This document shows, piece by piece, positions 52,346 to 57,702 of a stretch of DNA of 64,000 bases. A program made the translations under genes and the position numbers. Location: assembly GCF_988243305.1 (NCBI RefSeq), contig NZ_OZ547136.1, one strand, 5' to 3'. The notes below the pieces were generated by a model. It was not told where the DNA came from, ran no database searches, and was given only the letters and a program-made list of their open reading frames with translations. Each line of letters starts with the position of its first letter. Positions within the stretch are counted from its first letter, which is position 1.

Positions 52346-53161
52346 CTACGAATTGATATGTTCCTTGCTGTAACGTCGCTTCCACGCAGCTGGCGTTAAA
52401 CCGGTGTGTTTGCGAAAAATCTGCCGGAAATAGCCAACGTCATTAAACCCGCACAACGCCGCCACTTCAGTGAGCGATCGCGCTTCGCTAATTAACAGCT
52501 TTTCGGCTTCGCGCACTCGCTGGCGATGAATTGCTTCTGTTAACGTCAGATGAAACACCCGCCGATAGACGCGCCCAAGATAATCGGCATTGCAGTACAG
52601 CTCGCGGGCTAAAAGCGCCGTGGAAAGCGGGCGATGATATTGCGTGCGGATCAGTTTCTGCGCTTTCCAGGCAAGCGTGGTACCTGCGGCATCGGCCTGT
52701 TCATCAAGACGCGCGTCACGGGTGAGTTGCTGCAAAATCAGCAGCACAATAAACTCCAGCGCCGGAGTGCGTTGATGCTTTTCCTGTTCGCTTAAGAACT
52801 GGCGAAACAGGGCCACCAGCGCCTGCGGATCGGCAACCTTCGTTTGTTGCGGCACGCTAAGATGAGTGAGCCAGCGCGGGTCGCTATCCGGCGCTTTAAC
52901 CTCAAAATGCAGCCAGTAAAATTTGAGATCGGCGGGAAAATCCTCTACCCCAACATGCTGTCGGTTCGGCCAGAGTAATAAACTCTCTCCCGCATCGACC
53001 AGAAATATCCGCTCTTCTTCCTGAATCGCTAATCGACCTTTTTCGACAAAGATAATTTCCCATGACTCCAGCCGCCTTGCCGGATGCCTCCCTACGCCAC
53101 GGGAAATAAATAATCCACCATTTTGCACTTTAATCGGTAACGTTATGGATAATTCGAGCAT
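52346..53161 (-). CDS. AraC-family transcriptional regulator (cupin-like sensor domain plus C-terminal double HTH)
   Basis: 271-aa ORF; C-terminal AraC signature region ...LSTALLARELYCNADYLGRVYRRVFHLTLTEAIHRQRVREAEKLL...GFNDVGYFRQIFRKHTGLTPAAWKRR; divergent from transporter gene. Confidence 0.85.
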   Translation of the reverse strand: MLELSITLPIKVQNGGLFISRGVGRHPARRLESWEIIFVEKGRLAIQEEERIFLVDAGESLLLWPNRQHVGVEDFPADLKFYWLHFEVKAPDSDPRWLTHLSVPQQTKVADPQALVALFRQFLSEQEKHQRTPALEFIVLLILQQLTRDARLDEQADAAGTTLAWKAQKLIRTQYHRPLSTALLARELYCNADYLGRVYRRVFHLTLTEAIHRQRVREAEKLLISEARSLTEVAALCGFNDVGYFRQIFRKHTGLTPAAWKRRYSKEHINS

Positions 53162-53386
53162 TGATATGTAATTTCCCGCTTATTCATTAATGATTAAACA
53201 CATTACCTTTTGATTATGAATCAAAAACATTAATTTCACCTGATCCAATTCACACTTTTAAATTCAGGTCGGAATCGTCACCTTTTTTTACTCTTTTCTC
53301 GCCTTGTTGATATTCCCGTTCACGGCAGAATTAATCATGTCATTGCAATAAAACTAAAAATTGCTCCCTATTCACGAGGAATATCT

Positions 53387-54787
53387 ATGACCTCTACACC
53401 GATTACTGCCGCTGATATCGCTAAAGGTAAAATTGACGATGCGTTATCTGTACGGGAAAAAATAGGCTACGGCCTGGGTGACGCAGGCGGCACCGTAATA
53501 ACTTGCCTGATCATGAACTTTCTCACCTTTTTCTACACCGACGTTTTTGGCTTAACTCCGGCGCTGGTCGGCACGCTGTTTATTGCACTGCGCGTGTTTG
53601 ATGCCATCTCCGACCCGGTGATGGGCGTCATTGCCGACCGGACGCAAAGTCGCTGGGGGCGCTTTCGTCCGTGGCAGTTATGGATTGCCATTCCCATCGG
53701 CATTATCGGCATCCTGACGTTCACCGTGCCAGATGCCAGCATGGGAGTAAAAATCGCCTGGGCGTTCGGCACTTACCTGCTCCTTTCAGTCGGTTATACC
53801 GCCATCAACGTGCCGTACTGCGCGCTGATCAACACCATGACCACCCGCCACAATGAAGTGATCTCCTGCCAGTCCTGGCGATTCGTTCTCTGCGGCGTAG
53901 CGGGATTTCTGGTTTCGGTAGGCTTACCGTGGATGGTAGATCTCTTCGGTCAGGGTAATGCCGCGCGCGGCTATCAACTGGGCGTCGGCGTGCTGTGCGC
54001 CATCGCTGTGGTGATGTTCCTGTGCTGTTTCTTCTGGGTTCGTGAACGGGTGCCACTCTCCACAATGGGGAAATTTACCCTGCGCGAACATCTTGCCGGG
54101 CTGCGAAACAACGACCAACTACTGCTGATGCTGGTCATGTCTTTCCTGCTGATTAACGTCTTTAACATTCGCGGCGGTGGGTATATGTACTTCATTACCT
54201 ACGTCTTACAAGGCAGTACGGGCTACACGTCGCTGTTCTTCACCATGGTCACCTTCGCCTCCATTATCGGCTCGGTGATTGTCAGCCCGTTAACGCGGCG
54301 TTTCGATACCGTCAAAATTTATTACTACACCAACCTGCTCCTCGCTGCGCTGGCGGTGTTGATGTGGTTCCTGCCCTCCGGCCCGGCTTATCAAACGCTG
54401 TGGCTGGCGGTGATCCTCGGTAATGGCGTGATTCTTGGCTTCACATTGCCACTGCACTTCTCATTGATGGCCTTTGCCGATGACTACGGCGAGTGGAAAA
54501 CCCGCGTACGTTCTTCCGGCATGAACTTCGCCTTCAATCTGTTTTTCATCAAACTGGCCTGGGCCTCCAGCGCCGGGATCATCAGCCTGCTGTTTATTTT
54601 TGTCGCCTACCAGCCAGGCGTGGAAAACCAGACCACCAGTTCGCTTGGCGGGATCACGGCGATGGAAACATTACTGCCTGCGCTATTCCACCTGCTGCTG
54701 GCAGGGGCGATCCGCTTTTGCAAACTCAATAACCCTATGATGTCACGCATTGCTACCGACCTGCGTCAGCGTCATGTACAGCCTTAA
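53387..54787 (+). CDS. GPH-family (MelB-like) glycoside:cation symporter
   Basis: 466-aa 12-helix protein with GPH N-terminal signature GYGLGDAGG...[17 protein letters not shown]...[28 protein letters not shown]. Confidence 0.88.
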
Positions 54788-54797
54788 GGAGCACAAG

Positions 54798-56762
54798 ATG
54801 AACATTTCGGAAGTCGATCTGCATAAACTGACGGTCAGCGATCCGTTCCTCGGTCAGTACCAACAACTGGTCCGCGATGTGGTGATTCCTTATCAGTGGG
54901 ACGCCTTGAACGATCGTATCCCAGAAGCGGAACCCAGCCATGCGATTGAAAACTTTCGCATTGCCGCAGGACTGCAAGACGGTGAATTTTACGGGATGGT
55001 GTTTCAGGACAGCGACGTCGCCAAATGGCTGGAAGCGGTAGCCTGGTCGCTGTGCCAGAAGCCGGATGCCGAACTGGAAAAAACCGCTGACGAGGTAATC
55101 GAACTGGTCGCTTCCGCCCAGTGCGAAGATGGCTATCTCAATACTTACTTTACGGTAAAAGCGCCCGAAGAACGCTGGAGCAATCTGGCGGAGTGTCATG
55201 AACTTTACTGCGCCGGTCATCTGATTGAAGCCGGAGTCGCCTTCTTCCAGGCCACGGGCAAGCGGCGCTTGCTGGAAGTGGTTTGCCGTCTGGCCGATCA
55301 TATCGACAGCGTATTTGGTCCAGGTGAAAGTAAGTTACACGGTTATCCTGGTCACCCGGAAATTGAACTGGCGCTAATGCGCCTGTATGAAGTGACCGAA
55401 GAGCCGCGCTACCTGGCGCTGACGAACTATTTTGTCGAACAGCGTGGTGCGCAACCGCACTATTACGACCAGGAATATGAAAAGCGCGGGCAGACCTCGC
55501 ACTGGCACACCTACGGCCCGGCGTGGATGGTGAAAGATAAAGCCTACAGCCAGGCGCATTTGCCCATCGCACAGCAACAAACCGCCATCGGACATGCAGT
55601 ACGCTTTGTATATCTGATGACTGGCGTCGCACATCTGGCGCGTTTAAGTCACGATGAAAGCAAGCGTCAGGATTGCCTGCGGCTGTGGAACAATATGGCC
55701 CAGCGTCAGTTATATATTACCGGCGGCATTGGCTCACAAAGCAGCGGCGAAGCGTTCAGCAGCGATTACGATCTGCCGAATGACACGGTTTACGCCGAAA
55801 GCTGTGCTTCCATCGGCCTGATGATGTTCGCCCGGCGAATGCTGGAAATGGAAGGCGACAGTCAATATGCCGATGTGATGGAGCGCGCACTGTACAACAC
55901 CGTGCTCGGCGGCATGGCGCTGGATGGCAAACATTTCTTCTATGTGAATCCGCTGGAAGTACATCCAAAATCGCTGAAATTCAACCATATCTACGATCAC
56001 GTTAAGCCGATCCGCCAGCGTTGGTTTGGTTGCGCTTGTTGTCCGCCAAATATCGCCCGCGTGCTGACCTCGATTGGTCATTATCTCTACACGCCGCGTG
56101 AAGATGCGTTGTATATCAACATCTACGCAGGAAACAGCATGGAAGTGCCGGTAGAAAATGGCACGTTGCGCCTGCGGGTTAGCGGGAACTATCCGTGGCA
56201 GGAACAGGTGACAATTGCGGTTGAATCGCCCCAGCCGGTGCGTCATACGCTGGCTTTACGTCTGCCGGACTGGTGCACACAGCCGCAGATCATATTGAAT
56301 GGGGAAGAGGTCGGGCAGGATATTCGTAAAGGGTATTTGCACATTACCCGCGAATGGCAGGAGGGCGACACACTGAATCTGACTTTGCCAATGCCGGTAC
56401 GTCGCGTTTACGGTAACCCTCTGGTGCGTCACGTCGCCGGAAAAGTGGCGATTCAGCGCGGCCCGCTGGTGTATTGCCTGGAACAGGCCGACAACGGCGA
56501 GTCACTGCATAACCTGTGGCTGCCTACCGATGCGCCATTTACGACCTTTGACGGCAAGGGATTGTTCCGCCATAAGATCTTAATCCAGGCACCGGGTTAC
56601 CGGTATGAACAGAGCAATCCAGAGCAGCAACCGCTGTGGCATTACGACAGCGCGCCAGCCAAACGCCAGCCGCAAACCCTGACCTTTATCCCGTGGTTTA
56701 GCTGGGCCAACCGGGGTGAAGGCGAAATGCGGATCTGGGTGAATGAGGAAACCAGCGCATGA
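54798..56762 (+). CDS. Glycoside hydrolase family 127-like protein (DUF1680; predicted beta-L-arabinofuranosidase)
   Basis: 654-aa ORF from ATG 54798 with SD aaggag 11 bp upstream; contains ESC and CACC motifs matching my recollection of the GH127 Glu-x-Cys / Cys-Cys zinc and nucleophile site. Confidence 0.72.
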   Translation: MNISEVDLHKLTVSDPFLGQYQQLVRDVVIPYQWDALNDRIPEAEPSHAIENFRIAAGLQDGEFYGMVFQDSDVAKWLEAVAWSLCQKPDAELEKTADEVIELVASAQCEDGYLNTYFTVKAPEERWSNLAECHELYCAGHLIEAGVAFFQATGKRRLLEVVCRLADHIDSVFGPGESKLHGYPGHPEIELALMRLYEVTEEPRYLALTNYFVEQRGAQPHYYDQEYEKRGQTSHWHTYGPAWMVKDKAYSQAHLPIAQQQTAIGHAVRFVYLMTGVAHLARLSHDESKRQDCLRLWNNMAQRQLYITGGIGSQSSGEAFSSDYDLPNDTVYAESCASIGLMMFARRMLEMEGDSQYADVMERALYNTVLGGMALDGKHFFYVNPLEVHPKSLKFNHIYDHVKPIRQRWFGCACCPPNIARVLTSIGHYLYTPREDALYINIYAGNSMEVPVENGTLRLRVSGNYPWQEQVTIAVESPQPVRHTLALRLPDWCTQPQIILNGEEVGQDIRKGYLHITREWQEGDTLNLTLPMPVRRVYGNPLVRHVAGKVAIQRGPLVYCLEQADNGESLHNLWLPTDAPFTTFDGKGLFRHKILIQAPGYRYEQSNPEQQPLWHYDSAPAKRQPQTLTFIPWFSWANRGEGEMRIWVNEETSA

Positions 56763-56833: not shown

Positions 56834-57244
56834 TTAAACGCCCGGCAATACACGCCGGGCAGCTTCCGCCAGAAACGCACTTCTGTTGGCATAGTCTGGG
56901 TTATTGCGCACGTAGGTATCAATCTTGTTCAGTAATCTTTTTGGCATCGTAATATTGATACGTTCAGCCCGACCTTCGAACTGATTCATATTGATATCCA
57001 CCAGCAACCATTGCCCGCCAATAAAGTCCTGCGCACGCTGGACCAGATGTGTTTCCACAGAGCCTGGAAGCGGCAACTCTTCATTCATCTCGCATAAGGT
57101 TTCGAAGTGCGCGACCAGTGCACTTCGCGCATCCTGGAAAGCGTAGTCCAGCGTATCACCAGCAAAATAACAGCCTGGAACATCAGGGAAAAAACCGCTG
57201 GCACTGCCGTCAGGATCACTGTGGATATAGGCGGGATAAAACAT
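56834..57244 (-). CDS. hicB: HicB-family antitoxin (N-terminal HicB fold plus C-terminal ribbon-helix-helix)
   Basis: 136-aa ORF MFYPAYIHSDPDGSASGFFPDVPGCYFAGDTLDYAFQDARSALVAHFE... with C-terminal RHH-like NRSAFLAEAARRVL; strong SD aggagg upstream. Confidence 0.8.
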   Translation of the reverse strand: MFYPAYIHSDPDGSASGFFPDVPGCYFAGDTLDYAFQDARSALVAHFETLCEMNEELPLPGSVETHLVQRAQDFIGGQWLLVDINMNQFEGRAERINITMPKRLLNKIDTYVRNNPDYANRSAFLAEAARRVLPGV

Positions 57245-57260
57245 ATTGCCTCCTGAAATT

Positions 57261-57446
57261 TTAAAATGTTAAACCAGCCTGACGCCCAATTTGCGCCAGC
57301 GTACCGGGCTTAATATCTTTTTTAGGGTGCGGAACCGTCACCAGACCCGGATGAACAGGGTGGCGGAACTGATGATGACTGCCACGGGTTCGAATATGTT
57401 CCCAGCCATGCTGCTTCAGGATGGCGATCACGTCTGCACTTTTCAC
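57261..57446 (-). CDS. hicA: HicA-family toxin (YcfA-like mRNA interferase, 61 aa, GTG start)
   Basis: (M)KSADVIAILKQHGWEHIRTRGSHHQFRHPVHPGLVTVPHPKKDIKPGTLAQIGRQAGLTF; conserved GSH...H and VTVPHP..D motifs; 16 bp upstream of hicB. Confidence 0.8.
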   Translation of the reverse strand: MKSADVIAILKQHGWEHIRTRGSHHQFRHPVHPGLVTVPHPKKDIKPGTLAQIGRQAGLTF

Positions 57447-57671
57447 ATCCCTGCCCTTCCATGATTATACACACGATACACACACAATTAGCGATAACAA
57501 TCACGATAGCGCGATTTATATGGGCCGTCAGGGGGATAAAGTTGACTCGCTCGGAAGGAGAATAACGGTGTGCAGTAACTTGTTGAAAAGATGCGAGGAG
57601 ACTCGTAATTAAGTTCAATCAATATTCAGTCATTCAAGACGTAGACATTTGAATTGGTAAAACGCGCAAAC

Positions 57672-57702
57672 GTCGCATCAGGCAATGAATACCCGATGCG
57701 AC
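57672..57702. repeat. REP-like palindrome between hicA promoter region and aldB 3' end
   Basis: gtcgcatc-aggcaatgaataccc-gatgcgac. Confidence 0.45.

Follow-up and report, generated by a model that had tools for sequence, protein, structure and literature searches.

A conserved divergent control region, probably of the araC-pBAD type, between an AraC-family regulator gene and a symporter-GH127 operon in Escherichia coli

In a gene cassette of Escherichia coli that presumably serves the uptake of a plant sugar (a beta-L-arabinofuranoside), an AraC-family regulator gene stands back to back with an operon for a GPH-family symporter and a GH127 protein. Judged from its sequence across the Enterobacterales, the spacer between them is a strongly constrained divergent control region for the regulator and the adjacent operon. 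The region is probably a compact, back-to-back arrangement of the araC-pBAD type, in which the operon promoter would need an activator and be co-activated by CRP, and a single CRP site would be common to both promoters. We infer the assignment of proteins to sites, the transcription starts, and activation rather than repression. The switch is of an ordinary kind (pBAD/AraC-CRP) and holds no surprise for specialists in bacterial gene regulation.

The Cassette and Its Genomic Setting

The window, a 64,000-nucleotide stretch of contig NZ_OZ547136.1 (RefSeq assembly GCF_988243305.1), is the part of the E. coli chromosome surrounding the yiaK-S (yiaMNO-lyxK-sgbHUE) operon. The cassette consists of the following features:

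52346-53161, minus strand: AraC-family regulator gene, 271 aa (Pfam AraC_binding, HTH_18 and HTH_AraC)
53162-53386, no strand assigned: divergent AT-rich spacer, 225 bp
53387-54787, plus strand: GPH-family (MFS_2) glycoside:cation symporter gene, 466 aa (TIGR00792 above cutoff; Pfam MFS_2)
54798-56762, plus strand: GH127 beta-L-arabinofuranosidase-like gene (three Pfam GH127 domains)

The limits given for the spacer in the original prediction, from the regulator start codon to the symporter ATG, are exact. By Pfam, the regulator is built from an N-terminal AraC_binding cupin and a C-terminal double helix-turn-helix (HTH). Its top NCBIfam match is the AraC equivalog, at 61 bits and under the cutoff of 208, and E. 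coli AraC aligns with it over the whole length (residues 9-270, both domains) at 23% identity (E 8e-11). The operon is accordingly flanked by what a pBAD-type system has, an adjacent divergent regulator of the AraC/XylS family with a ligand-binding cupin and a double HTH. The GH127 gene begins 10 nt 3' of the symporter gene, at the RefSeq start of 54798, and its product matches solved beta-L-arabinofuranosidases (PDB 4QJY, E 1e-235; HypBA1, 3WKW, E 1e-152). Further along, a hicB/hicA toxin-antitoxin pair (56834-57700, minus strand) lies between the GH127 gene and aldB, where K-12 has yiaT-yiaU-yiaV-yiaW.

About 43% of complete E. coli genomes (2313/5426), BL21 and O157:H7 among them, have an intact spacer, and some piece of the cassette is retained in 4785/5426. 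In K-12 MG1655, the spacer and the symporter gene are deleted, and the interval between sgbE and yiaT holds only the pseudogene remnants ysaC (the 3' end of the regulator gene) and ysaD (the 3' end of the GH127 gene). A search of the literature on the cassette in E. coli or Enterobacteriaceae found nothing relevant; the K-12 deletion probably explains why the cassette has gone unstudied.

Conservation of the Spacer Across Enterobacterales

E. coli alone is uninformative, because the spacer is 97.7-100% identical over the genomes that carry it. A profile built from the regulator and homologous proteins yielded 80 loci from other Enterobacterales. The divergent regulator-symporter layout is found in 78 of these, with GH127 next in nearly all, and the orthologous spacers of the 78 loci are 215-261 bp long, a few outliers aside. 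Over the same loci, identity is 80-97% for the symporter and 58-94% for the regulator. Individual cassettes show rearrangements of their own: the spacer of Buttiauxella izardii measures 383 bp owing to an insertion, an internal deletion in B. massiliensis fuses the symporter and GH127 genes, Kosakonia arachidis has the symporter and no GH127 match, and the cassette genes are partial in Kluyvera genomosp. 3.

Seventy-six distinct spacers from other Enterobacterales were aligned with MAFFT. Unconstrained columns carry about 0 bits, meaning that divergence is saturated, and the conserved blocks therefore reflect selection. These blocks lie at 53210-53217, at 53242-53245 (GATC), at 53250-53258 (TCACA-N-TTT), at 53264-53309, at 53324-53337 and at the ribosome-binding site. 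They make up five modules: a minus-strand ATAAT element, GATC-N4-TCACA-N-TTT, a 46-bp block, a -10-like hexamer and the ribosome-binding site. The modules stand at constant distances of 30, 8, 18 and 35 nt, followed by an unconserved stretch of 16 nt from TTGTTG to CAGAAT. Counted over 77 spacers, the 30 nt from the regulator -10 element to GATC recur in 57, the 8 nt from GATC to TCACA in 73, the 18 nt from TCACA to GTCGGAAT in 73, and the 35 nt from GTCGGAAT to CTTGTTG in all 77. Variation in spacer length is confined to the symporter leader, and the eight polymorphisms seen within E. coli all fall in columns that are unconserved between genera. The presumed DNA site of the regulator is near-invariant even in Hafnia, where the regulator is 58% identical.

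A short GC hairpin, (A)GCCCGC-N6-GCGGG, that E. coli lacks is found in the symporter leaders of orthologues from Klebsiella, Raoultella, Citrobacter, Pantoea and Kosakonia; the strict motif occurs in at least 15/77 spacers and its fold is no better than that of shuffles, as holds for the leader folds in general. Neither the spacer nor the leaders have an Rfam match at E up to 1. A small open reading frame was likewise rejected as an explanation: the spacer has a single one, of 22 codons with a TTG start, on the minus strand and over unconserved columns.

A Predicted Two-Part Operator and Weak Rightward Promoter

The candidate site of the regulator is predicted to be the near-invariant 46-bp block at 53264-53309, which is absent from the original prediction. 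It holds GTCGGAAT-N7-TTTTT-N-TACT and CCTTGTTG. The former is exact in 74/82 loci, with one copy per locus, and unique in the window; in the spacer alignment GTCGGAAT is invariant. The following features are assigned on the rightward side:

53268-53284, plus strand: predicted regulator half-site 1 (araI1 position), GTCGGAATCGTCACCTT, starting 18 nt after TCACA
53289-53305, plus strand: predicted regulator half-site 2 (araI2 position), TACTCTTTTCTCGCCTT, starting 21 nt after the start of half-site 1
53304-53309, plus strand: -35-like hexamer TTGTTG, 3/6 matches to consensus, at the same position in 67/77 spacers
53326-53331, plus strand: -10-like hexamer CAGAAT, 76 nt after TCACA, within the conserved GCAGAATTAAT
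53376-53380, plus strand: Shine-Dalgarno sequence GAGGA of the symporter gene, 6 nt before the ATG, with GAGG 80-99% conserved

Conservation of half-site 1 begins slightly upstream, at about 53264. In half-site 2, which overlaps the -35 region, TACT and CCTT are near-invariant. Among the direct repeats of the conservation profile, the 21-nt offset between the two scores highest (TCAyCTTTTT / TycCCTTGTT), short of significance by column permutation (P about 0.07), and the half-sites share 8/17 positions. A distal copy of either half-site, of the kind represented by araO2, was sought from -900 to +700 in 74 loci and none is conserved, in a search that weak sites could escape. Because no distal copy was found, the looping part of the AraC mechanism is unsupported at this cassette.

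Downstream of TTGTTG, the 16-nt spacer is constant in length and unconserved in sequence. The -10 position reads CAGAAT in 50/77 spacers and CAAAAT in 23/77, with A2 and T6 kept in 75/77, and the rightward start is predicted at 53337-53340. With 7/12 consensus matches, TTGTTG-N16-CAGAAT is a weak core promoter. A consensus promoter scan of 52900-53700 found no strong sigma-70 promoter or terminator, and the lack of a strong sigma-70 promoter fits activator-dependent promoters. The strain of the window has T at 53338, in the predicted rightward start, where four other E. coli strains compared have G.

The sequence GGAATCGTCA bears a likeness to operators of the Cra or LacI family. This likeness was set aside: it lacks the key T, its right half is mismatched, and the cassette is without a LacI-family gene. 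E. coli ETEC4071 has an IS1 junction within the predicted activator site (about 53288), with a deletion from there to selB that leaves the regulator gene alone.

A CRP-Like Site Between Two Predicted Promoters

Upstream of the candidate operator, the conserved element GATC-N4-TCACA-N-TTT (53242-53258) is present in 73/77 spacers. It belongs to the first of two features assigned on this side of the operator:

53236-53257, no strand assigned: CRP-like site with core CCTGA-TCCAAT-TCACA (53239-53254), put forward on conservation, register and pBAD geometry
53213-53218, minus strand: predicted regulator -10 hexamer CATAAT (AATAAT in most E. coli and in other genera), with a predicted start at about 53206

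All 11 strongly conserved columns agree, over 22 bp and in a single register, with the CRP consensus, AAATGTGATCTAGATCACATTT. The right half, together with its TTT flank, is invariant and fits the consensus at every base. Against TGTGA-N6-TCACA the core scores 8/10, a two-mismatch level that amounts to chance in the window, where 28 such cores were found and 24.5 are expected. The core match was rejected as evidence by itself; since it stands at chance level, the case for CRP is made by conservation, register and the pBAD geometry.

CRP acts at positions in workable helical phase with RNA polymerase, at about -41.5, -61.5, -71.5 and -92.5. Relative to the predicted rightward start, the centre of the CRP-like site (53246.5) is at -91.5 to -93.5, and relative to the predicted leftward start it is at -40.5 to -41.5, so that the site would be in workable phase with both, each start being a prediction.

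The same element could instead be a third site of the regulator, or a site of some other factor, which overlaps the regulator -35 and serves autoregulation in the manner of araO1. We consider this unlikely, although several features suggest it. TCACAyTTT (53250) resembles the TCAyCTTTTT of half-site 1 and, at an offset of 28, ranks second among the direct repeats of the profile. The left half never comes near TGTGA, which occurs in 0/77 species, only G7, A8, T9 and C10 being kept; of these, T9 and C10, and with them the GATC, are conserved beyond what the CRP consensus requires. To this may be added the chance level of the core match. Against a third regulator site stand the fit of every strongly conserved column to a 22-bp CRP consensus and the agreement of the element with the pBAD CRP site in sequence (TCACACTTT), in orientation and in distance to half-site 1. 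The 28-bp offset does not share the helical phase of the 21-bp pair, a half-site 1 matrix gives the element no score, and the fifth base consistently differs, being A in the element and C in half-site 1. A CRP site remains the preferred reading.

On the leftward side, plus-strand TTGATTAT (53210-53217) is 70-90% conserved and reads ATAATCAA on the minus strand; ATTATT stands at this position in 59/77 spacers. From this pattern, 53213-53218 would be the -10 of the regulator promoter. The spacer alignment has no conserved -35 for it, and the ATAAT element is absent from the deep clade of Buttiauxella, Cedecea, Atlantibacter, Hafnia and Mangrovibacter. The strain of the window has a G at 53218, unseen in four other E. 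coli strains, which turns AATAAT into CATAAT and breaks the perfect palindrome TTGATTATTAATCAA. The palindrome TTGATTATGAATCAA (53210-53224) was considered as an operator and rejected, as only its left arm, TTGATTAT, is conserved and a minus-strand -10 fits better; nor is it an FNR site, its spacing being N5 where FNR needs N4. Just upstream of the regulator start codon, AATTTCCCGC (53173-53180) and GATAT (53163-53167) are moderately conserved. The minus strand there reads GCGGGAAATT...ATATC-ATG, with 12 nt between GGGA and the ATG, a long distance for a Shine-Dalgarno sequence.

Base Composition and Repeated Words

The spacer is, as originally described, far more AT-rich than its flanks: its GC content is 32.4%, compared with 55-58% in the flanking genes and 51.4% in the window, and just 0.3% of 225-bp windows are equally AT-rich. 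This composition could mark a horizontally acquired accessory cassette as a target of H-NS-type silencing, with its short repeated words a mere by-product of AT-richness. The contrast of 32% with 51% GC favours such an origin, as do the chance level of word repetition (see below) and the variable presence of the cassette, intact in fewer than half of the complete genomes and deleted in K-12. We nevertheless hold it improbable as an account of the region, for it leaves unexplained the blocks of 8-10 invariant bases at constant spacing in more than 70 species, and the GC content of the conserved block is relatively high (GGTCGGAATCGTCACC). An H-NS layer is compatible with the araC-pBAD-type model as an addition to it, and would not replace it.

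The original prediction had singled out reiterated cattaa and attcac words as direct-repeat half-sites of the AraC-type regulator. The four strings that it quoted were all located, aattcacac at 53247-53255, attcacgag at 53370-53378 and two longer motifs as follows:

53182-53195, no strand assigned: attcattaatgatt, holding the palindrome TCATTAATGA; E. coli-specific, in the predicted 5' leader of the regulator gene, about 0 bits
53227-53240, no strand assigned: acattaatttcacc; unconserved, between the regulator -10 and the CRP-like site, about 0 bits

The chosen words are singly enriched relative to dinucleotide shuffles of the spacer, at P 0.004-0.02 (for instance, CATTAA at 3 copies against 0.35, P 0.007, and ATTCAC at 2 against 0.22, P 0.019), and a repeat search gives a 23-nt direct pair of 74% identity (53183-53205 and 53210-53232). 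The enrichment vanishes once the choice of words is taken into account: because they were picked after looking, and because 92% of shuffles of the same spacer carry some 6-mer at three or more copies, the reiteration is not beyond chance. The spacer has three such 6-mers and the shuffles have 2.8 on average (P 0.51).

Nor is the reiteration shared with other genera. Of the 76 orthologous spacers, one has two or more copies of CATTAA and two have two or more of ATTCAC, while attcattaatgatt, acattaatttcacc and the palindrome TCATTAATGA occur in none. The columns of the two long motifs carry about 0 bits, and the alignment of motifs over orthologous loci, proposed with the original prediction as its check, turned out in the way that it had itself named as refuting it, so far as these motifs go. 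Conservation in aattcacac is limited to the TCACA core (53250-53254), which is the strong half of the CRP-like site instead of an AraC half-site; in attcacgag, it is limited to the overlap with the Shine-Dalgarno GAGGA. The palindrome TCATTAATGA (53184-53193), being specific to E. coli, was also rejected as an operator. The HTH region of the regulator is conserved, as is another block, of 46 bp, and it is scarcely credible that the cattaa/attcac words are the half-sites. What stands of the original prediction is the type of the region, the presence of candidate half-sites and two divergent promoters; the motifs that it named for these roles do not. Its description of the spacer as the sensing point of the cassette holds insofar as the inducing signal and catabolite control would be combined there, the sensing of the ligand belonging rather to the cupin domain of the regulator.

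Relation to Known Regulatory Systems

The closest likeness is to araC-pBAD. In the published scheme of pBAD, direct-repeat half-sites lie 4 bp apart and overlap the -35, with CRP bound upstream (PMC11983282). The spacer shares with it a divergent regulator of two-domain build and two adjacent predicted 17-bp elements, the second of which overlaps a weak -35. The offsets from TCACA are identical. In E. coli K-12 pBAD, araI1 begins at +18, araI2 at +39 and the -10 (TACTGT) at +76; in the spacer, GTCGGAAT is at +18, TACT at +39 and CAGAAT at +76, the last of these having been assigned before the comparison with pBAD was made. All nine bases of the strong half of the pBAD CRP site and its flank, TCACACTTT, recur in the spacer without change of orientation, facing the operon.

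The two systems also differ in several respects. The half-sites of the spacer are unrelated to AraC's TAGC-N7-TCCATA. On the regulator side, the distance from ATG to TCACA is 89 nt, compared with 224 nt in ara. ara has araO1 and araO2, whose equivalents were not found at the cassette in the half-site search. The CRP-like site would lie at about -41 of the cassette regulator's promoter, unlike in araC-pBAD, and the genes of the operon are those for a GPH symporter and a GH127 protein rather than araBAD.

Another related arrangement is rhaSR-rhaBAD (pRha), in which two activator half-sites overlap the -35 and have CRP upstream of them (PMC11983282). The cassette has this order in common with it. 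The RhaS half-sites, in contrast, are inverted repeats 16 bp apart, whereas the best internal similarity in the cassette is direct and spans 21 bp, the geometry of pBAD.

In gene content, the cassette recalls melR-melAB, in which an AraC-family activator is divergent from an operon for a glycosidase (melA) and a GPH symporter (melB). The melR promoter is CRP-dependent, with CRP centred at -41.5, and at melAB the activator works together with a weak CRP site. This class II geometry on the regulator promoter resembles that proposed for the leftward promoter of the cassette. MelR has several sites of 18 bp among which CRP sits, the spacer is longer, and the glycosidase gene precedes that of the symporter; in each of these points the cassette differs.

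Proposed Mechanism and Significance

The half-sites at 53268-53284 and 53289-53305 and the CRP site at 53236-53257 are read as such because of their offsets, the shared TCACACTTT, the alignment of the regulator with AraC and the published pBAD scheme (PMC11983282). In the mechanism that we propose, the rightward promoter would be intrinsically weak and would drive the symporter-GH127 operon. A sugar-loaded dimer of the regulator would occupy the two 17-bp half-sites, arranged directly and 21 bp apart, and turn this promoter on. cAMP-CRP, centred at 53246.5, would add catabolite control to the operon. From the same site, about 40.5-41.5 bp upstream of the leftward start, it would drive the regulator gene in a class II manner. 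A beta-L-arabinofuranoside, or a product of one, is the probable inducer.

A further-reaching interpretation, which we offer tentatively, is that the cassette has a pBAD-like switch of its own that works without the repression loop. Such a switch would respond to a beta-L-arabinofuranoside (e.g., beta-Ara2 from plant extensins or arabinans) and not to free L-arabinose; its operator would have been kept near-invariant in more than 70 species of Enterobacterales, and the switch would have been lost from K-12. In a smaller variant of the same idea, the conserved GATC inside the CRP-like site may make the switch sensitive to Dam methylation.

The analysis provides a base-resolution model, with two promoters, one common CRP site and a two-part operator, for the unstudied regulator of a GH127 cassette. 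The exact match to the pBAD layout, with unrelated operator sequences, would show how rigidly one arrangement of AraC dimer, CRP and RNA polymerase is reused. The rightward promoter is a possible orthogonal inducible promoter. If the loop-less, glycoside-responsive reading is true, the cassette would offer a ready-made orthogonal inducible system, and it would imply that many E. coli lineages forage plant glycans.
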